Part shown: piece after piece, positions 1,058 to 54,922 of the stretch
Layout of the letters: every line of letters starts with the position of its first letter
Numbering within the stretch: position 1 is the first letter of the stretch
Position numbers and translations under genes: made by a program
Sequence record: MZ956763.1
Reading direction: 5' to 3' (one strand)
Source: a phage
DNA length: 64,000 nucleotides
Notes under the pieces: model-generated
Told to the model about the DNA's origin: nothing
Seen by the model: the letters and a program-made list of their open reading frames with translations, nothing else
Database searches by the model: none

Positions 1058-1306
1058 TTAAATTGAATTTATTGCTTCCATGTGTTTTTCGTAGAAGTCT
1101 AAACATTTTTCATCTTGCTCCTTTATGTAACTCTCATAAAATTCCGGTGATTCTGGTCTTTCGCCAAAGGAAATAACCTTCAGGTAGTACTTCCCATATG
1201 CTGAGCTATCTAACCAAGAATCAAATAGTAATTTCTTAGTGTTAGTCTTTGGAGGGATTACTAAGCTTTTTTCATACAATTCCTTCATTTCTTGAGTTAT
1301 CTTCAT
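1058..1306 (-). CDS. hypothetical protein
   Basis: 82 aa ORF, tightly packed with neighbours on same strand. Confidence 0.45.
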   Translation of the reverse strand: MKITQEMKELYEKSLVIPPKTNTKKLLFDSWLDSSAYGKYYLKVISFGERPESPEFYESYIKEQDEKCLDFYEKHMEAINSI

Positions 1307-1506
1307 TGCATATCCTTAACCTTACCTAAGAACCTTACACCACAGCTATTACACTCATATATGTCTAAATTTGTGTTATCAGGTTTATGAAAACACTTTG
1401 ACCCGCAACGACACCTGAATAGCTTACCATCAACACGAAGAATGAATGTTTCAAGCTCACCATCTTCTGTAAGGACGGCGTTCTTAAACTTATCTTCTAC
1501 AGTCAT
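1303..1506 (-). CDS. hypothetical zinc-ribbon protein
   Basis: 67 aa; CRCGSKC...CNSCG cysteine pairs; start overlaps upstream stop. Confidence 0.45.
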   Translation of the reverse strand: MTVEDKFKNAVLTEDGELETFILRVDGKLFRCRCGSKCFHKPDNTNLDIYECNSCGVRFLGKVKDMQ

Positions 1507-1724
1507 TTTCTCTTACCACCAATCTCTACGTCGATAACCTGAACATCACCAGCAACATCAAACTTATGAATGATGCTTTCCACAGTGTAAGTCCAACCCT
1601 CAATTCGAACCAACTCACCTTCTCGTGGGACGATTGGGTTACGTTGAGCTACGGTTGTAGTGGAGTGAACAACATCATAACAGTAGATATAGTTTACTAG
1701 GACTTCCATCGTAAAAAACCTCAC
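1503..1724 (-). CDS. hypothetical protein
   Basis: 73 aa ORF in operon-like overlap chain. Confidence 0.45.
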   Translation of the reverse strand: MRFFTMEVLVNYIYCYDVVHSTTTVAQRNPIVPREGELVRIEGWTYTVESIIHKFDVAGDVQVIDVEIGGKRK

Positions 1725-7406: not shown

Positions 7407-8150
7407 ATGAGTAATATTATTGCGTTTACTGGAAAGGCACGTTCTGGAAAAGATACCTCATGTTCTATTGTTAAGAATATCTTAGAAGATGAGTATGGCT
7501 ACAATGTTGCAGTAATGGCCTATGCAGACAATCTTAAGCTGTCTGCATCAAAGATATTTGACTTGACATGGAATGACCTGTACGGTGAAACTAAAGAGAC
7601 TCCACAGGTTTTTGATTTATCATACTCTGAACTGATGTTCAAAGTTACGGAAGCTATGGAGTTCACCTTCAGAGATGAACGTTACCATATGGACTTTAAG
7701 CTTATGTCAGAGTTAACCGGACGATTAATCATGGAACTTAAGAAGGTTGCTAAACCAACCTTATTAACACGTCTGGGATTTAGTAAAAAGTATAAATTCT
7801 CATCAAGACAAATTCAACAGATTTGGGGAACTGAAGTTATCCGTAAAGTTATGGGTGACAAATTCTGGGCTAAAGACCTCGAAAAACGGATGGCTCGATT
7901 CTTTGAATCTTGTTCACTTAGAAATCAAGAAGGTGTTGTTTTAATCAGTGACTTAAGGTTTGACTCTGAAGCTGAGTGGTTGAGCAGATTTGCACACCAA
8001 ACTATTGAAGTAAAAAGAGACAATGTGGATAAAGTTTCATCACATGTTTCAGAAAATGGAATTTCTACCAAATATGCACGTGACATTATCCATAATAATG
8101 GTACTCTTGAAGACCTTGAAAGTAAGCTAAGAGCTATCCTGAAAATTTAA
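7407..8150 (+). CDS. deoxynucleoside monophosphate kinase (P-loop)
   Basis: N-terminal IAFTGKARSGKDT Walker A resembling T4 gp1-type dNMP kinases. Confidence 0.65.
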   Translation: MSNIIAFTGKARSGKDTSCSIVKNILEDEYGYNVAVMAYADNLKLSASKIFDLTWNDLYGETKETPQVFDLSYSELMFKVTEAMEFTFRDERYHMDFKLMSELTGRLIMELKKVAKPTLLTRLGFSKKYKFSSRQIQQIWGTEVIRKVMGDKFWAKDLEKRMARFFESCSLRNQEGVVLISDLRFDSEAEWLSRFAHQTIEVKRDNVDKVSSHVSENGISTKYARDIIHNNGTLEDLESKLRAILKI

Positions 8151-23625: not shown

Positions 23626-24141
23626 ATGTATCTGTCAAACCTGAAACGTTCGGCTGCAATGTCAGTTCTAAGACTAAGCTTTGAGGAACGTCAAGAGTTC
23701 ATTGACTCCCACCAATACGACCCTTCTAACTCAAATCACATGATTCTCTGGAATCGCGACAGTACTCGTGAAAGAGCACTATTCCGCTATTATCCACATT
23801 ACACCATAGATAACCTGTATGAATGTTTTGTTGTTAAGAACACCATTGCAGTGCTCAATAAGCTTTGTAGGTACACAGGTAACCAGTCCTTCACATTAGG
23901 TCACCACAAGCCTGTTACAAAAGGTGGCGAGCATCACTGTGCAAACTGGTTTATCCAAACTAAAGCCGATAACCAGAAGCAAGGAGATAGTCTTCTAAGC
24001 ATCCCTAAGATGACCTACGAAGAGCAAGAGAAATATATCAAAAATAATATGCCAGATGTGCTTGACAACAACTATACAGATTTGGCAATATCTCTCCTGT
24101 TGAAGTTTGAGACAGTTTATAGGGCAACTTACAATGGCTAA
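23626..24141 (+). CDS. putative HNH endonuclease
   Basis: GHHKPVTKGGEHHCANW...N pattern resembles HNH core. Confidence 0.45.
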   Translation: MYLSNLKRSAAMSVLRLSFEERQEFIDSHQYDPSNSNHMILWNRDSTRERALFRYYPHYTIDNLYECFVVKNTIAVLNKLCRYTGNQSFTLGHHKPVTKGGEHHCANWFIQTKADNQKQGDSLLSIPKMTYEEQEKYIKNNMPDVLDNNYTDLAISLLLKFETVYRATYNG

Positions 24142-24421: not shown

Positions 24422-24877
24422 ATGATTTTTTGCAGCTTCCAAAAAAGAATTATTGAGATTCTATACAATAAGTTTGGGACAGATAACACATTTGACTCAA
24501 ATGAAGCTATCGAAGCCCTACAAGAAGGAAGTGATTACATCAAAAAACAGCCAATAGCCAACATCAGATACTACTTGACTCAGATGAGAAAGTGGGGTGT
24601 GCTCATCGTGGTAGGACAGATTAAGCAACAAGGGAGGATGCTCATCAACCAATTAAATAGAGGTTTTATTGAGAAGCACATTCAGCTAGACTATTTACTT
24701 AAAGAGCCACGAAATCAACGTGAAGAGCAGCAAAAAGACTTAAGTGATGGTGTAGGTGTGTCTCCAGACATAAAATTCTTTATTGGTGAGTTGATGTTTG
24801 ATACACTCCAAGATGCTGTTGAACACTGCAAAAAGTATATTATCAAAGTAAAACGTGCAAAAATTATTTGGGAGTAA
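24422..24877 (+). CDS. paralog family member A1 (unknown function)
   Basis: 151 aa; shares IEILY..FG.D.TF.S.EAI and C-terminal EHCKK.IIKVKRAKIIWE with three downstream genes. Confidence 0.6.
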   Translation: MIFCSFQKRIIEILYNKFGTDNTFDSNEAIEALQEGSDYIKKQPIANIRYYLTQMRKWGVLIVVGQIKQQGRMLINQLNRGFIEKHIQLDYLLKEPRNQREEQQKDLSDGVGVSPDIKFFIGELMFDTLQDAVEHCKKYIIKVKRAKIIWE

Positions 24878-24881
24878 TAAC

Positions 24882-25277
24882 ATGTTTGAGCTTCTGAAGG
24901 TTCTGTATATAAATTTTGGCTATGATAAAACATTTTCTGGCTCACAGCTAACTAAGGTTTTTAATAAATATCTACCACATGCTTCAATCAGGGATAAAGC
25001 TAATTGGTCTCACAGATTACGTAAAAGTGGGTATATTAGCGTTGTTGGAGCGACAGGCTTTAATAATGAGTATCTTATGAGAATCAATGAAAGCAAAGCT
25101 AAAAAGGTGCTTTTAAATTGTAATAACCATCAACAAAAGGATGAAGAGGTTAGTGTAGGTGAAGTAGGGTACTTCATAGGTGACATACACTTTACCAGTA
25201 TGGAGGCAGCAGTTGAGCATTGTAAGAGAACGGTTATCCAAACAAAAAGAAAGCGTATTGTTTGGGAAGAAGTTTAA
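24882..25277 (+). CDS. paralog family member B1 (unknown function)
   Basis: start at ATG after upstream stop; LLKVLY..FGYDKTF and C-terminal AVEHCKRTVIQTKRKRIVWE. Confidence 0.55.
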   Translation: MFELLKVLYINFGYDKTFSGSQLTKVFNKYLPHASIRDKANWSHRLRKSGYISVVGATGFNNEYLMRINESKAKKVLLNCNNHQQKDEEVSVGEVGYFIGDIHFTSMEAAVEHCKRTVIQTKRKRIVWEEV

Positions 25278-25298
25278 ACATTTGATTAGGAATACACT

Positions 25299-25763
25299 AT
25301 GATTTTTTGCAATTTACAGAAGCACGTAATAGAGATTTTATACAAAACCTTCGGGACAGAAAACACTTTTGACTCTAATGAAGCAATTGACGCATTAAGA
25401 GAGAATAGCCTCTTTATACGAGGCCAGTCAATCAGTAATACCCGTGGGTATCTAACAATGTTAAGACAGTCTGGTGTACTACTGACTGTAGGGCAGGTAA
25501 AAAGCAAAGGTAGACTAAGTATTAATCAATTAAATCGAGCCTTTATGGAGAAGCATATACAACTGTCAAGGATGCTAGATAATACGCGTGAAGAGTTGGG
25601 GAGTTCACAAAAAGCAAGTTCATCTGATGTTAAAGATGTGGATGTACAACCTGATGTAAGATACTTTATTGCTGATGTTATGTTTAAAACACTCGATGAA
25701 GCTATTGAGCACTGCAAAAAGCACCTTATTAAAGTTAAACATGCAAAAGTTATTTGGGAGTGA
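25299..25763 (+). CDS. paralog family member A2 (unknown function)
   Basis: 154 aa; roughly half of positions identical to 24422..24877 by eye. Confidence 0.6.
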   Translation: MIFCNLQKHVIEILYKTFGTENTFDSNEAIDALRENSLFIRGQSISNTRGYLTMLRQSGVLLTVGQVKSKGRLSINQLNRAFMEKHIQLSRMLDNTREELGSSQKASSSDVKDVDVQPDVRYFIADVMFKTLDEAIEHCKKHLIKVKHAKVIWE

Positions 25764-25767
25764 TGCT

Positions 25768-26148
25768 ATGATTGAACTGTTAAAAGTCCTATATAATGAG
25801 TTTGGTTATGATAAAACTTTTACTTGTTCACAGATACGTAGTATCCATGATAAGGAATTTCCAAATGTATCCAAGACAAACAAGTCAACTCGGTTCAATC
25901 GTCTTCGCCAGAGAGGTTACATTAAAATAGTTGGATACAAGAATAACTCTTTCGAGTATGTAATGCAGATTAACAGAGAAGTTTCAAGTAAAATACTTGA
26001 AGAGCCAACAGCCGAAGAACAAAAGATACAAGATGGTGAAGTTCGCTTCTTTGTGGAGAAGGAAAGTTTTGGGTCAATAGATGAAGCTATCGAATATTGT
26101 AAAAAGAACATTATCCAGATAAAGCGTAGAAAGGTTATTTGGGAATAA
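25768..26148 (+). CDS. paralog family member B2 (unknown function)
   Basis: start at ATG after upstream stop; MIELLKVLYNEFGYDKTF and C-terminal AIEYCKKNIIQIKRRKVIWE. Confidence 0.55.
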   Translation: MIELLKVLYNEFGYDKTFTCSQIRSIHDKEFPNVSKTNKSTRFNRLRQRGYIKIVGYKNNSFEYVMQINREVSSKILEEPTAEEQKIQDGEVRFFVEKESFGSIDEAIEYCKKNIIQIKRRKVIWE

Positions 26149-26165: not shown

Positions 26166-27047
26166 ATGAAAACATCTATCCGTGTTACAGTTCATTCACC
26201 GACTAAAGGGACTCACGAAGAAGAGTTTAACATTATCCAATTCCCTTCTGGTGAGATTGGTGGACACTTTTCACAAGAGCTTGTTGATTTCACTGCTTAT
26301 GCAGCATCATCTATCAACAATGTAATCATGATTGTGAAAGGTTATGATAAGGACACATTGTTTGCTGTGGCACTCGCTAAAGAAGCAATTGATGATTTAA
26401 TTCCTCATGATTATGCCTTAAAGACTGTCATCTTTTACTACTTACCAAATGCACGATATGACCGTCACATGTTTAAAGGTGATGCAGCAGCTTTGAAGGT
26501 TTTTGCTAAACAGGTTAATGCAATGGGGTTTGGTGCAGTCTGTGCAGTTGACCCTCACAGCTATGTACCAGATAACCTGTTTAACTGCTTCCAAAGTATT
26601 CCTCAAAATGAAATTGCAGTCCACTATGCAAATGACCCACTGGTTGATTACTTAGTAGCCCCAGATGCAGGTGCTGCTAAGAAGATTGCAGAGACTGCTA
26701 AAGAGGTGGATAAACCATATATCACAATGTCTAAGGTGCGCAACCTTAAGACTGGCGAAATTACTGGTATGCGAATCCTTGATGATGTTGATTTGACAGA
26801 TAAAACCGTCATGATTCTGGACGATATCTGTGATGGCGGTCGAACATTCATAGAAGCAGCTAAACATCTTCGTGAAGCAGGTGCAAAACGTGTGGAACTC
26901 TATGTAACACATGGTATCTTTTCTAAAGGTGTTGAAAACCTTCTTGACAATGGTATTGACCACATCTACACTACAAACTCTTTAGGGGAAGCTAAAGACC
27001 GTGGTTTAACACATTATGGTCAAGTTACTGTAGCAAACCTTGATTAA
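26166..27047 (+). CDS. ribose-phosphate pyrophosphokinase-like protein (PRPP synthetase family; candidate Adps of NARP1)
   Basis: PRTase-type motif VMILDDICDGGRTF; about 295 aa. Confidence 0.7.
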   Translation: MKTSIRVTVHSPTKGTHEEEFNIIQFPSGEIGGHFSQELVDFTAYAASSINNVIMIVKGYDKDTLFAVALAKEAIDDLIPHDYALKTVIFYYLPNARYDRHMFKGDAAALKVFAKQVNAMGFGAVCAVDPHSYVPDNLFNCFQSIPQNEIAVHYANDPLVDYLVAPDAGAAKKIAETAKEVDKPYITMSKVRNLKTGEITGMRILDDVDLTDKTVMILDDICDGGRTFIEAAKHLREAGAKRVELYVTHGIFSKGVENLLDNGIDHIYTTNSLGEAKDRGLTHYGQVTVANLD

Positions 27048-27093
27048 AACTTTATAGGGGGCTTTTAAGCCCCATTTTGAGAGAGATTAAAAG

Positions 27094-28875
27094 ATGACTA
27101 AATCACTTTATGCAGTACCAGCAGGTTTAAACGCAGATGCTTACAAATCTGGTCATGTTTACCAGTACCCTAGTGCAACAGATTACTTGATGTTTAACCT
27201 GACACCACGTAGTGATAAATGGTTTAACAGCCCTTTAGCAATTGATGGTGTAGTAGCTTTTGGTATTCAACGTTTTGTTAAAGATTACTTGATAGACCAC
27301 TGGAACGCCACCTTCTTTGAACGTGACAAAAAAGAAGCAATTGACGAAATCTTAGAAGTCATGAACGGTGTTCTGGGTAAAGATGCTATTGGTCGAGAAC
27401 ATTGGGAAGCACTTCACGACTTAGGTTATCTACCAGTTGAGGTATACGCTGTAGAAGAAGGTACAGTTGTCCCTATGCGTGTTCCAATGATTGTATTCCA
27501 GAACACTGTTTCAGGTTTCCATTGGGTAGCGGGATATCTGGAAGATGCTTTCTCTGCTGAGATTTGGAAGGCTTGTACCATTGCAACTATTGCATTGCAC
27601 TACAAACGTATCTGTAAGAAGTGGTCTGACCTTACTTGTGACAATGACTTGCATTTACCTTATCAGTGCCATGACTTCGCTATGCGTGGTATGTCCGGCT
27701 TTACCGATGACGCATTTAACGCTGTAGGTCACTTAACCAGCTTTAAAGGGACTGATAGCTTCCCTGCTGTGTATACAGCTAAACGCATCTATGGGCAGTC
27801 CTATCCAATTTCAGATATTGGTGGCTCTGTACCAGCCACTGAACACTCTGTCATGTGTGCAAACATTGCTTGGGAAGGTGGGGATGAGTTGATTGAAGAA
27901 GAAAGACGCTTTAAAGGTGAGTTACAAACCTTCCGTCGTTTCTTAACAGAAACTTACCCAACTGGTATTGTAAGTATTGTTTCAGATACTTATAATTTCT
28001 GGAGAACTGTATCAGTGATACTACCAGAACTCCGTAAAGAGATTATGGAACGTGATGGCAAACTGGTAATTCGTCCTGACTCTGGAGACCCTGTACATAT
28101 TGTCACAGGTTATAAAGCAATACATTTAGAGTGTGCTAAAAAGGCTTATTACGAACACCTAAGCAAGCTGGAAGCCAGCGACACAATGTTGAATGCTGTT
28201 CTGAACATGAAGCTTGAAAACATTAGCTATGGTATTGCTGGGTGGCTACTGTCAGAAGGCTACGAAATGGTTGTTGACAGAGAAGACTTTGAAGTTGCTG
28301 ATACAGTGATGTTGAAAAACGCTTATATGGTTGGTTCTGCAAACGTTGTAACACGTCCTGTAGCAGAGATTGATGGAGCTATCAAGACACTGTATCACAT
28401 CTTTGGAGGAACTATCAACTCTAAAGGTTTTAAAGTACTGGATGAGCACATTGGCCTTATTTATGGTGACTCTATCACGTTGGAACGTGCAAACGAAATC
28501 CTGAAGCGTTTGTATGAAATGGGTTTTGCAAGCTCTAACGTAGTGTTTGGTGTAGGTTCTTACACTTACCAGTACATGACTCGTGACACCTTTGCATTTG
28601 CTGTCAAAGCAACTCTTGCAAGCATTGGTGGTAAAGAGATTATGCTTGCAAAAGACCCTAAAACAGATAGTGGTGTTAAGAAATCTGCCTTTGGTGGTGT
28701 AGCACCTATGTGGGATGGTGATAAGCTGAAAGCTGTAGATGGCTATGGATTCCAGAGTTTTGCAGATGTACTTGACCACCCAGCTTGTGCCTTACGTTTA
28801 GTCTTTAGTGACTCTGAGCAGTTCGGTTACACGACTCTTGGTGATATTCGAAATAATATTGACAAGCAGCTTTAA
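27094..28875 (+). CDS. nicotinamide phosphoribosyltransferase-like protein (NAMPT family; candidate Namat of NARP1)
   Basis: 593 aa; N-terminal LYAVPAGLNADAYKSGHVYQYP typical of NAMPT/NadV family. Confidence 0.75.
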   Translation: MTKSLYAVPAGLNADAYKSGHVYQYPSATDYLMFNLTPRSDKWFNSPLAIDGVVAFGIQRFVKDYLIDHWNATFFERDKKEAIDEILEVMNGVLGKDAIGREHWEALHDLGYLPVEVYAVEEGTVVPMRVPMIVFQNTVSGFHWVAGYLEDAFSAEIWKACTIATIALHYKRICKKWSDLTCDNDLHLPYQCHDFAMRGMSGFTDDAFNAVGHLTSFKGTDSFPAVYTAKRIYGQSYPISDIGGSVPATEHSVMCANIAWEGGDELIEEERRFKGELQTFRRFLTETYPTGIVSIVSDTYNFWRTVSVILPELRKEIMERDGKLVIRPDSGDPVHIVTGYKAIHLECAKKAYYEHLSKLEASDTMLNAVLNMKLENISYGIAGWLLSEGYEMVVDREDFEVADTVMLKNAYMVGSANVVTRPVAEIDGAIKTLYHIFGGTINSKGFKVLDEHIGLIYGDSITLERANEILKRLYEMGFASSNVVFGVGSYTYQYMTRDTFAFAVKATLASIGGKEIMLAKDPKTDSGVKKSAFGGVAPMWDGDKLKAVDGYGFQSFADVLDHPACALRLVFSDSEQFGYTTLGDIRNNIDKQL

Positions 28876-28888
28876 AAGTATATGATAA

Positions 28889-28912
28889 GAGGCTCCTACG
28901 GGAGCCTTTTTT
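28889..28912 (+). terminator. intrinsic terminator after NAMPT-like gene
   Basis: GAGGCTCCTACGGGAGCCTTTTTT. Confidence 0.6.
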
Positions 28913-28929
28913 AATTTCTGGAGAATGCT

Positions 28930-36708: not shown

Positions 36709-37494
36709 ATGGGTATTGTAAAAATTATTAACGGTGATATCTTTTCAGCATTTGATAAAGGTAAGTTTGACATCATCGGTCAGGGTTGCAACTGTATGAA
36801 TTTAATGGGTGCAGGTATCGCTGACAAGATTTCTAAACTTTACCCAAAAGCATATGAGACCGATACAGAAGTTTATCTATATGCAGGTGGCATTCGTCAC
36901 AAACCCTGTGAAAATTTACTGGGTAATTTCTCTGTAGCACGTTTAAAACAAGGTCGTATAGCTAACCTTTACACCCAACTTCATACTGGTAAAGATGCCC
37001 GATACAGTGCTTTAGAGTCATCTTTGAAGCAACTTAACAGATACTGTGAAGTCAATCAGTTGAAGAAAGTTGGTCTGCCTATGATTGGTGCAGGTATCGG
37101 TGGACTTGACCCTCAAGCTGTCACAGTTATCATTAATCAGGTGATGAAGGGTGTAGATGTATATCTGTATGTCTACGAGACAGAGATGTACAACGAGTTA
37201 CACTCAGGTTGGAAGAACTACTGTGAACCAGAATACTTTGCAGGTGTAGCAGTGTTCACAGATAACGCAGTTACCCTCTTCAGACGAAGAAAAGGTAAGA
37301 TACATCAAAGTAACCCTCCGGTTGAAAAGATGTCTCTAAGTAACGCTCTAGTTACCCACCTGTCGAAGAGCAATCACAGGATTGCAGTAACATTTGGCAG
37401 TGATGCAGATGCTTACATCTATGCAAGAACTGATGAGGATATCGAGACGATTTTCTCTTCACCAGAAGTTACCTTCTTAGACGCAAAGAACTAA
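36709..37494 (+). CDS. macro-domain protein (ADP-ribose binding/processing)
   Basis: N-terminal IINGDIF...IIGQGCNCMNLMGAGIADKI resembles macro-domain glycine-rich loop. Confidence 0.5.
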   Translation: MGIVKIINGDIFSAFDKGKFDIIGQGCNCMNLMGAGIADKISKLYPKAYETDTEVYLYAGGIRHKPCENLLGNFSVARLKQGRIANLYTQLHTGKDARYSALESSLKQLNRYCEVNQLKKVGLPMIGAGIGGLDPQAVTVIINQVMKGVDVYLYVYETEMYNELHSGWKNYCEPEYFAGVAVFTDNAVTLFRRRKGKIHQSNPPVEKMSLSNALVTHLSKSNHRIAVTFGSDADAYIYARTDEDIETIFSSPEVTFLDAKN

Positions 37495-40976: not shown

Positions 40977-41519
40977 ATGAAATGCTTTCACGGTACTACT
41001 CAAGAAAACTTCATCAACCTGATTAATAACGGTGATAAGCCATCAGGTGCATGGAATTGTTCGGATATGGACGGCAATTTTTACGTGTATCCAGAGAATA
41101 AAATCTATGGCGACGATGAGGAAGAGATAACATCTGAAGGCATCCAGCAAGCGTTAGGCAATGCCACTATCACGGCAGCTTTCCAGATGAAAACCCAAAA
41201 TATTGTTATCTTAGAACTTGATATCCCAGAGGATGACCTGAATGATGATTATTCTTGCGATAATATGTCTGGCGTAGCAAGTTTTACAGAATACTTCGAT
41301 TTGAATTGGATTAAAAAGGTTTACGTAACTGAGTTTAATGCGATGTTTTCGCCTTTTTGTCTTCCTTCATTGGATAACCCAAATTTAAACTATCTTGACG
41401 AGTCTCTGGAACTTCTTGCTAAAAGTGTTCAACAGTCGGACAGTATTCAGGTTTTTTGTGACATCATGGATACACTAACGGGAAACATCGCAGAAGAGGA
41501 TTTAAAGAGCTTTTTTTAA
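40977..41519 (+). CDS. hypothetical acidic protein (array gene 8)
   Basis: 180 aa; conserved leader. Confidence 0.55.
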   Translation: MKCFHGTTQENFINLINNGDKPSGAWNCSDMDGNFYVYPENKIYGDDEEEITSEGIQQALGNATITAAFQMKTQNIVILELDIPEDDLNDDYSCDNMSGVASFTEYFDLNWIKKVYVTEFNAMFSPFCLPSLDNPNLNYLDESLELLAKSVQQSDSIQVFCDIMDTLTGNIAEEDLKSFF

Positions 41520-53506: not shown

Positions 53507-54922
53507 ATGAGCGAGTTATTTAAACATGCGCACCTTCATGCAGGTCGAACTGAAAATGGTGCTGTAAACCATACTTCATCAATGTCTGCTCTGGTAGACT
53601 TCTACAAAGCTGCTGGTTCAAGCCGTAGCAATGTAGAAATCTTACCAGACCTGTTCTACAAAGCTTTGCATGAGGATGTTGATGTTGCAGTTCGTATTTT
53701 ACTGCATATGCGAGATGTACGAGAAGGTATGGGTGAGCGTAAAGCCTTCAGGACTGTTTTGCTTCAAGCAATTGAAGATAAAGTTTTAGAGTCTACACAG
53801 GTTCTTCGCATTATGGATAAGATTGCAGAACTTGGTCGTTTTGATGACTTCAAAATCTTCGTAGGTACTCGCTTCGAGACAGATGCCTTCAAACATTTAG
53901 AAGCAGCATTACTAGACCCTGCAACAGCAGGTTTGGCAGCTAAGTGGTTGCCACGAGTCAAACCACGTCACAAACAGTTTGTAAAACGTTTCTGCAAGTT
54001 TGCCAACTTGAGTGAGAAAGAGTACCGCACACTGTTGTCTGCACTATCTGATACAGTTGAGCAAAAAATCTCTGCTAATGAGTTTGGCAAGATTGACTAC
54101 AGCAAGATTCCTTCACTTGCTGCTGCACGTTACCAAAAACTGTTTAACCGTAAAGATGGAGAACGCTACAAAGCTTACATTGAGTCTTTATCAAAAGGTG
54201 AGACTAAGATTAACGCTGGTGCTGTTTACCCATACGATGTGATTAAATCTGTCAAGCATGGTAATGCAGATGTTGCTAATGAGCAGTGGAAAGCACTACC
54301 AAACTGGATGGCAGAAGGTGAAAACATCTTGTGTATGACTGATGTTTCAAGCTCAATGTCTTGGGTGAATTTTGGCTCCATTACTGCTCTGGATATTGGT
54401 GTATCACTTGCATTGTATGTGGCAGAACGCAATACAGGTTGCTTTAAGAATGAGTTGATGGTTTATTCAACAAACCCTCACTTCATCGAACTTAGTGGTG
54501 ATTTACGAAACCGCCATCGTCAGGTGATGCGACATGTTGAATATGGTTCAACTAACTTACAAGCAGCTTTTGACCGTATTCTTGAGACAGGTAAAAGAAA
54601 CAACTTGACTCAGAAAGATATGCCAAGTAAGCTTATCATCTTCTCCGATATGGAGTTCAATCAGGTTGATGGAGCTAACGGTCGTACAAACTTTGAAGCA
54701 ATTCAGAGTAAGTACAAGAAAGCTGGATACGAAATGCCACAACTGGTATTCTGGTACTTAGCAAACCGTAATGGTACTTGCGAAGTGTCTGTTAAGGATA
54801 ACGGTGTAGCAATGGTATCTGGTTTCTCTCCAGCCACTTTAAAAGCTCTGCTTGGTGGTGAGAAGTTTGACCCAATCAGCGTAATGCTCAAAGCAGTAAT
54901 GATTGACCGCTATATCTGGTAA
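53507..54922 (+). CDS. vWA-domain protein, possible Ro60/TROVE-like RNA-binding protein
   Basis: 471 aa; C-terminal MIDAS-like DVSSSMS; sits immediately upstream of the tRNA/ncRNA cluster; TROVE assignment is inference. Confidence 0.4.
   Translation: MSELFKHAHLHAGRTENGAVNHTSSMSALVDFYKAAGSSRSNVEILPDLFYKALHEDVDVAVRILLHMRDVREGMGERKAFRTVLLQAIEDKVLESTQVLRIMDKIAELGRFDDFKIFVGTRFETDAFKHLEAALLDPATAGLAAKWLPRVKPRHKQFVKRFCKFANLSEKEYRTLLSALSDTVEQKISANEFGKIDYSKIPSLAAARYQKLFNRKDGERYKAYIESLSKGETKINAGAVYPYDVIKSVKHGNADVANEQWKALPNWMAEGENILCMTDVSSSMSWVNFGSITALDIGVSLALYVAERNTGCFKNELMVYSTNPHFIELSGDLRNRHRQVMRHVEYGSTNLQAAFDRILETGKRNNLTQKDMPSKLIIFSDMEFNQVDGANGRTNFEAIQSKYKKAGYEMPQLVFWYLANRNGTCEVSVKDNGVAMVSGFSPATLKALLGGEKFDPISVMLKAVMIDRYIW

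Follow-up and report, generated by a model that had tools for sequence, protein, structure and literature searches.

What do two adjacent genes at positions 26166 to 28875 of a phage sequence (record MZ956763.1; the stretch of 64,000 nucleotides that was analysed is hereafter the window) contribute to the phage that carries them? Their products resemble 5-phosphoribosyl-1-pyrophosphate (PRPP) synthetase (PRPS, or Prs) and NAMPT, and the question is whether they serve ordinary nucleotide salvage or form the nicotinamide adenine dinucleotide (NAD+) reconstitution pathway 1 (NARP1), in which NAD+ is rebuilt from ADP-ribose (ADPR) and nicotinamide (NAM). With a probability of roughly 93%, we assign the pair, adps and namat, to the NARP1 operon of a Felixounavirus. 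The system itself is already known and was first described in Felixounavirus, the genus to which the window phage belongs; judged by sequence comparison, the two genes are orthologous to those of the founding operon, a relationship that goes beyond mere architectural similarity.

NARP1 was discovered in phage Bas63 (JohannRWettstein, MZ501086) as genes 79-80 (bas63_0079/0080), the deletion of which increased sensitivity to SIR2-HerA ~20-fold; NAD+ recovery proceeded in the pncC nadR double mutant, making host pncC and nadR dispensable, and metabolomics detected ADPR-pyrophosphate (ADPR-PP) only in cells having both the operon and the defence system (Osterman et al., 10.1101/2024.02.11.579819). 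An independent knock-out screen, PhageMaP, recorded a 10^4-10^6 plating loss on Sir2-HerA for either Bas63 gene (10.1101/2024.10.10.617714). The two reactions, from ADPR and ATP to ADPR-PP and from ADPR-PP and NAM to NAD+, have been demonstrated with the enzymes of SpbetaL1, ICP1, DyoEdafos and Paenibacillus.

Both open reading frames (ORFs) are found where the sequence-only reading had placed them, on the plus strand (Table 1), with Pfam, PHROG and NCBIfam matches far beyond chance, and the two peptides that it quoted, VMILDDICDGGRTF in Adps and AYKSGHVYQYP near the N-terminus of Namat, are present. The start of adps is an ATG in all annotated orthologs, although the mechanically called ORF opens at a TTG at position 26139. 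Namat is identical to Bas63 gp80 at 582 of 593 residues (98%) and Adps to gp79 at 229 of 293 (78%), in each case at equal length and free of gaps; residues 181-293 of Adps are near-identical to those of gp79, whereas its N-terminal part is visibly more diverged. These identities bear out the proposal of the sequence-only reading that the pair is of the NARP1 type, as do the published residue signatures considered below. Proteins of Escherichia phage adrianh are named in the published tables of Adps and of 'Adps-associated' Namat (10.1101/2024.02.11.579819), and the window Adps differs from the tabulated adrianh protein at ~4 positions (~98.6% identity, compared by eye).

The first protein matches Pribosyltran (1.1e-11) and Pribosyl_synth (3e-09) in Pfam, PHROG 619 'ribose-phosphate pyrophosphokinase' (3.7e-97) and the broad model TIGR01251 (1.1e-34, 119.7 bits), but scores far under the cut-offs of every true-Prs equivalog model (e.g. 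103.6 bits versus 296). It is 37% identical to ICP1 Adps, 31% to SpbetaL1 Adps and 23% to Escherichia coli Prs (b1207), as well as 35% to each of the Adps proteins of Aeromonas phage P19 and Pseudomonas phage vB_VIPPAEUMC01, both of which, like the Bas63 and adrianh proteins, are in the published table. Pairwise identities and the Prs cut-offs, used here in place of a tree, suggest that it falls in the phage-specific Adps clade and not among cellular Prs.

Structures of ICP1 Adps in the apo, substrate and product states revealed a hairpin lysine (Lys185), the acceptors Arg87, His121, Asp161, Asp212, Asp213 and Asp216, a conserved PP-loop and the loss of the alpha11-alpha12 regulatory C-terminus of PRPS (PMC13586617). 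In the window Adps, K190, R97, H131, D167, D219, D220 and D223 align with ICP1 K185, R87, H121, D161, D212, D213 and D216, respectively, and the PP-loop, DDICDGGRTF, aligns with DDICDGAASF. K190 is also aligned with SpbetaL1 K162, mutation of which abolishes Adps activity (10.1101/2024.02.11.579819). The alpha11-alpha12 module of PRPS is lost from the window protein as well, as judged from sequence alignment: Adps stops where E. coli Prs goes on with AIRRISNEESISAMFEH.

Namat matches NAPRTase in Pfam (1.8e-34), with NAMPT_N at the N-terminus, PHROG 448 (5e-201) and NF006629 (2.7e-140), and its closest solved relative is SpbetaL1 Namat (9W5W/9W5X; 3.7e-128, 47% identity). The NAMPT-type catalytic core is intact (D15, Y17, F195, R198, D221, H251, R327, D329 and G458-D459), and all NAM/nicotinamide mononucleotide (NMN)-site residues of the SpbetaL1 crystal structure are kept. 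Namat is discriminated from Nampt by the motif GSXΦXΦXΦTRD and by a clamp loop in which Arg, Lys or Tyr comes third, with Lys or Tyr being followed by a stacking residue at the fourth position (PMC12774641). When mapped onto the SpbetaL1 sequence, the motif is found as G488-S-Y-T-Y-Q-Y-M-T-R-D498, whereas the Nampt-type fragment in the published homolog table reads GGGLLQEVTRD at this site. Human NAMPT presumably has GSGGGLLQKLTRD there. In the clamp loop, which is identical to that of Bas63, K42 is aligned with SpbetaL1 R40 and is followed by W43.

The sequence-only reading had left room for an ordinary Prs plus NadV pair, in which PRPP would be made from ribose-5-phosphate, NadV/Nampt would convert it to NMN and host NadR or PncC would complete the synthesis of NAD+, raising the nucleotide and NAD+ supply. 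The names given to the two families in Pfam, PHROG, NCBIfam and GenBank fit such a pair, and Namat retains in vitro the conversion of NAM and PRPP to NMN, at about half of the activity of human Nampt (PMC12774641). However, the Bas63 operon, 98%/78% identical to that of the window, counters defence in the pncC nadR double mutant, with ADPR-PP being observed; moreover, the second protein has the Namat motif in place of the Nampt-type fragment, and the first one, being below all Prs equivalog cut-offs, is also devoid of the C-terminal regulatory helices of PRPS. The alignment check proposed with the sequence-only reading, against Adps and Namat as well as the canonical enzymes, yields substrate-binding residues that fit the Adps/Namat signatures. 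Because the two proteins bear the published signatures by which Namat is told apart from Nampt, and Adps from PRPS, we regard an ordinary salvage pair as very improbable. To an even greater extent, this applies to NARP2 (Nampt plus a phage Nmnat) and NARP3 (a PnuC-like transporter plus a NadR-like enzyme), in which nicotinamide or nicotinamide riboside would serve for de novo synthesis of NAD+ and to which we attach next to no weight. Although the window contains a NAMPT-family gene, and both pathways are known in coliphages and vibriophages, the partner gene is a PRPS-like Adps, which defines NARP1, and the published table calls the clade 'Adps-associated', not 'Nmnat-associated'. The scanned ORFs of at least 150 amino acids (aa) in the window, which itself spans 64 of the 88 kb of the genome, yielded no CTP_transf_like/Nmnat, NadR, Nudix or PnuC domain, and no Nmnat, NadR or PnuC is annotated in the examined regions of Bas63 and adrianh; given that Nmnat, NadR and PnuC are missing from the scanned ORFs, NARP2 and NARP3 do not fit. 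An RyR-domain accessory (RyDEP) was considered and dropped: the respective paper names no coliphage, and the scanned ORFs gave no match to an RyR domain.

Several observations weigh against the assignment to NARP1. The purified-enzyme biochemistry comes from the SpbetaL1, ICP1, DyoEdafos and Paenibacillus homologs, neither from the window phage nor from Bas63, and the SpbetaL1 and ICP1 homologs are 31-47% identical to the window proteins. The part of Adps that diverges from Bas63 is the N-terminal domain, which in ICP1 Adps provides the adenine-contacting residues; ICP1 F92 aligns with M102 of the window protein (F103 being adjacent), and the counterpart of ICP1 F18 is probably the invariant F26, as read from a multiple alignment. 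The Felixounavirus Namat is ~96 residues longer than the crystallised SpbetaL1 enzyme, with insertions of 4, 15 and ~77 residues (the largest at ~340-427), which Bas63 has too. Finally, the residual NMN-forming activity of Namat implies that some ordinary salvage might take place. For the window allele, the enzyme activities and the anti-defence phenotype would follow from the observed presence, layout, orthology and residue conservation of the two genes.

If the window enzymes act as their homologs do, Adps, a hexameric PRPP-synthetase-like enzyme, would take ADPR in the interdomain groove where PRPS holds ADP and ribose-5-phosphate, and move the beta,gamma-pyrophosphate of ATP onto the 1'' hydroxyl of the distal ribose, yielding ADPR-PP and AMP, with Lys190 as the putative catalytic-hairpin lysine. 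In the dimeric, NAMPT-like Namat, the conserved catalytic core would then let nicotinamide displace pyrophosphate, giving NAD+ directly, and an adenine-binding 'selectivity clamp', predicted to consist of the K42-W43 loop and the GSYTYQYMTRD helix, would make ADPR-PP preferred over PRPP. ADPR and nicotinamide are precisely what SIR2, TIR, SEFIR and related NADases of defence systems release from NAD+, so that the operon is expected to reverse NAD+ depletion only once it has occurred and, in this way, to permit phage replication in hosts with NAD+-depleting defences.

The two genes are on the same strand and separated by a 46-nt spacer (27048..27093), and the gene located 5' of adps stops 17 nt ahead of the adps ATG. 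The spacer contains a small hairpin (Table 1; centroid -11.4 kcal/mol, z = -2.45 versus shuffles) that was left uncalled by the terminator scan because its T run is too short; it may act as a leaky terminator or help to stabilise the RNA. The two-gene unit is closed by an intrinsic terminator that opens 12 nt past the namat stop codon (-16.6 kcal/mol, z = -3.19). In several relatives (e.g. PP892526, VpaE1 and pinkbiff), the adps-namat spacer accommodates a free-standing 492-bp HNH homing endonuclease gene (1191..1682 in one relative locus). The adps gene is mosaic (window 26166..27047 compared with 27747..28628 of another locus): in FelixO1 and several further relatives, the match to the window DNA sets in only at nt 276 of adps, which suggests recombination inside the gene.

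Table 1. Positions of the NARP1 genes, the associated RNA elements, the macro-domain gene and further genes of the window that are discussed in the text.
Feature	Position	Strand	Basis
adps, ADP-ribose pyrophosphokinase (PRPP-synthetase-like), 293 aa	26166..27047	+	ORF, family matches, ortholog of Bas63 gp79
namat, nicotinamide ADP-ribose transferase (NAMPT-like), 593 aa	27094..28875	+	ORF, family matches, ortholog of Bas63 gp80
Small G+C-rich hairpin (GGGGGC/GCCCCC stem, UUUU loop), then AUUUUG	27057..27079	+	Sequence, RNA fold
Intrinsic terminator, 10-bp stem, GGCUCC/GGAGCC core, then T run	28887..28917	+	Terminator scan, RNA fold
Macro-domain protein, 261 aa: Adpp-like macro domain (~1-165) plus C-terminal beta-rich domain of unknown fold	36709..37494	+	PF01661, PHROG 335
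Four tandem PHROG 29478 paralogs, 131-154 aa, function unknown	24422..26148		PHROG 29478
171-aa protein	23626..24141		96% identical to Bas63 gp77
Deoxynucleotide monophosphate kinase	7407..8150		PF21448, 1.5e-22
gp107 homolog	40977..41519		
471-aa protein	53507..54922		DUF2828, DUF7788

The window is a segment of a Felixounavirus genome. Its gene order, with DNA polymerase, primase-helicase, nrdA/B/D/G, the adps-namat pair, rIIA, rIIB, PNK, the macro protein, lysozyme, terminase and portal, agrees with that of annotated Felixounavirus genomes, and the flanks of the pair are as in Bas63, with nrdA/B/D/G upstream and rIIA/rIIB downstream. The locus was matched in at least 257 phage records, almost all of them Felixounavirus (phages of Escherichia, Salmonella, Shigella and Citrobacter), the best nucleotide match being that of adrianh (97.7% identity). 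The Adps, Namat and macro proteins are residue-for-residue identical to UKH47860.1, UKH47861.1 and UKH47876.1, respectively, of Escherichia phage RP3, a metagenome-assembled genome of 88,328 bp. Among the phages of the group that carries the locus are candidates for therapy directed at E. coli, Salmonella and Shigella, and a phage with a NARP1 locus is expected to resist NAD+-depleting defences of the SIR2, TIR and SEFIR types, a point of relevance when host ranges are predicted. The main value of the assignment lies in annotation: GenBank, PHROG and NCBIfam still call the two proteins 'ribose-phosphate pyrophosphokinase' and 'nicotinamide/nicotinate phosphoribosyltransferase'.

A macro protein encoded at some distance might widen the pathway to defences of the aRES type. 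The macro domain that the sequence-only reading noticed in the same region holds up (PF01661, 1.4e-07, residues 27-141; PHROG 335 'phosphatase', 2.5e-112), and the AlphaFold2 model of the protein has a pLDDT of 91.4. Its gene is, however, outside the NARP1 operon: it starts 7.8 kb beyond the stop codon of namat, ~15 genes further downstream and past at least three terminator-like sites. The aRES (RES-domain) defences turn NAD+ into ADPR-1''-phosphate, which is unusable by NARP1; 15% of NARP1 operons have, within two genes, a Poa1p-like macro phosphatase, Adpp, which restores the pathway against aRES, giving 'NARP1-AP', with the ADPR-1''-phosphate phosphatase activity and aRES rescue having been demonstrated only for the protein of Vibrio phage Gary (10.64898/2026.01.28.702374).

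The window macro domain aligns over the whole domain with Adpp of phage Gary, the validated enzyme (28% identity, 8e-15), and is 34% identical to the Adpp of a Pseudomonas phage (1e-17), and an hhalign comparison of 30 Felixounavirus-type homologs with 12 Adpp proteins from the published list gave a probability of 100% (E 2.4e-46). When hidden Markov model scores were compared at equal database size, the Adpp profile gave 101.7 bits for the window protein, at most 82 for solved (PDB) macro domains and 50.5 for Poa1p; reciprocally, the Felixounavirus macro profile gave 108.9 bits for Gary Adpp and at most 64.3 for solved macro domains. As we read the alignments from HMMER and BLASTP, the positions of the TARG1 catalytic Lys84 and Asp125 are occupied in both families by Gln and Gly/Ala. 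Such strong and reciprocal homology suggests that the window protein belongs to the same macro subfamily as Adpp.

It is conceivable, although we consider it rather doubtful, that the macro protein dephosphorylates the aRES product, ADPR-1''-phosphate, to ADPR in trans, enabling Adps and Namat to defeat aRES as well. A macro domain that, by hhalign and reciprocal profile scores, is nearer to the Adpp family than to any solved macro domain, and that shares the Gln and Gly/Ala replacements at the TARG1 catalytic sites, speaks for such a role. The distance of the gene from the operon and the intervening terminator-like sites speak against it: in the window, the macro gene is not within two genes of adps or namat, the interval that characterizes NARP1-AP. 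Furthermore, the published list of NARP1-associated macro proteins contains no Felixounavirus, the two-domain Felixounavirus clade is devoid of the Adpp-invariant Trp (GGDW replaced by GGLDP), its macro domain is fused to an additional C-terminal domain of no known fold, an Adpp-invariant His is replaced by Gln in the window phage, and the more distant homologs in other phages, which have a single domain, are encoded away from NARP1. Structure searches place DarG, TARG1 and Poa1p about equal, so that a de-ADP-ribosylase might likewise be accommodated. Co-occurrence with NARP1 was tried as support and rejected: the two-domain homologs with enough context are all in the same Ounavirinae synteny (one contig had no informative neighbours), and co-occurrence within a single phage subfamily provides no independent evidence. 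If the phosphatase does act in trans, Felixounaviruses, including the model phage Bas63, would run an extended NARP1, the window phage being a natural His-to-Gln variant; published surveys would have missed it because they looked only two genes to either side. Overall, a functional link of the macro protein to NARP1, as an accessory supplying ADPR, is plausible but unproven.

The variant resides in codon 25 of the macro gene (36781..36783), which is CAG (Gln25) in the window and CAC (His) in Bas63, the third base (position 36783) being C in relatives and G in the window. His occupies this position in Bas63, in 12 full-length members of the cluster that were read and in all 29 remaining sequences of the family alignment; in the Adpp family, the column is that of the invariant His24. 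Position 25 is very probably the counterpart of Poa1p His23. On both profiles, the deposited Poa1p H23A chain scores ~5.5 bits under the wild type, a drop that is not seen with the S30A and F152A chains; a literature search on the role of H23 in Poa1p returned nothing relevant. His25Gln may be an assembly error, as the genome is a metagenomic assembly, or a real, possibly inactivating variant. A link of the macro protein to RNA repair, together with a Tpt1-like gp107 and PNK, was also considered and set aside; the gp107 homolog has no Pfam match.

Some other genes of the window may be relevant to defence. The 171-aa protein encoded upstream of the pair is a homolog of Bas63 gp77, which counters retron Ec67 according to a knock-out screen, and because of its presence, the NARP1 neighbourhood may form a small anti-defence cluster. 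The four PHROG 29478 paralogs, located directly 5' of adps, all end in K/R-I/V-I/V-W-E; Bas63 and adrianh have no genes at their position, whereas the final 66 nt or more of the stretch are matched in other relatives. The 471-aa protein may be the counterpart of the Ro60-like Bas63 gp130, which counters the ppl defence system, as reported by a knock-out screen. The window also encodes a deoxynucleotide monophosphate (dNMP) kinase. The Kongming defence reportedly uses a phage dNMP kinase for its activating signal and then depletes NAD+; the window phage may therefore encode both the trigger of Kongming and, in NARP1, its counter.

Compared with known systems, the window proteins share folds and core catalytic residues with canonical Prs (E. 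coli b1207) and with NAMPT/NadV of human, Xanthomonas and KVP40 (NARP2). They depart from these in that Adps is 23% identical to E. coli Prs and is devoid of the regulatory C-terminus, whereas Namat has aromatic adenine-clamp residues at the Gly/Leu sites of Nampt and no Nmnat partner among the scanned ORFs. Like the phage carrying the Gary NARP1-AP (Adps-Adpp-Namat; 10.64898/2026.01.28.702374), the window phage encodes a macro domain, which is probably of the Adpp family; however, the Gary phosphatase is a single 158-aa domain encoded within the operon, whereas the window protein is encoded 7.8 kb off, has a second domain fused to it, is without the invariant Trp and carries the His25Gln replacement.

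ICP1 Adps (Vibrio phage; PMC13586617) resembles the window enzyme in the hairpin lysine, the Arg/His/Asp acceptors, the DDICDG PP-loop and the loss of PRPS alpha11-alpha12, but the two are 37% identical, CDGAAS is replaced by CDGGRT in the window, the F92 aromatic is found one position away and Glu takes the place of F223. The SpbetaL1 NARP1 (Bacillus phage; PMC12774641) is likewise a two-gene Adps-Namat operon, with the SCH motif GS-F/Y-T-Y-Q-Y-x-TRD in both and the NAM-, ribose-phosphate- and adenine-contacting residues conserved or conservatively replaced in the window; the differences include identities of 47% for Namat and 31% for Adps, the clamp (K42-W43 versus R40) and the window Namat insertions of 4, 15 and ~77 residues. 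The Bas63 NARP1 differs from that of the window in a visibly distinct N-terminal Adps allele and in the four extra PHROG 29478 genes (phrog_29478) that precede adps in the window, whereas the genus, gene order, protein lengths (293 and 593 aa), clamp residues and Namat insertions are the same in both.

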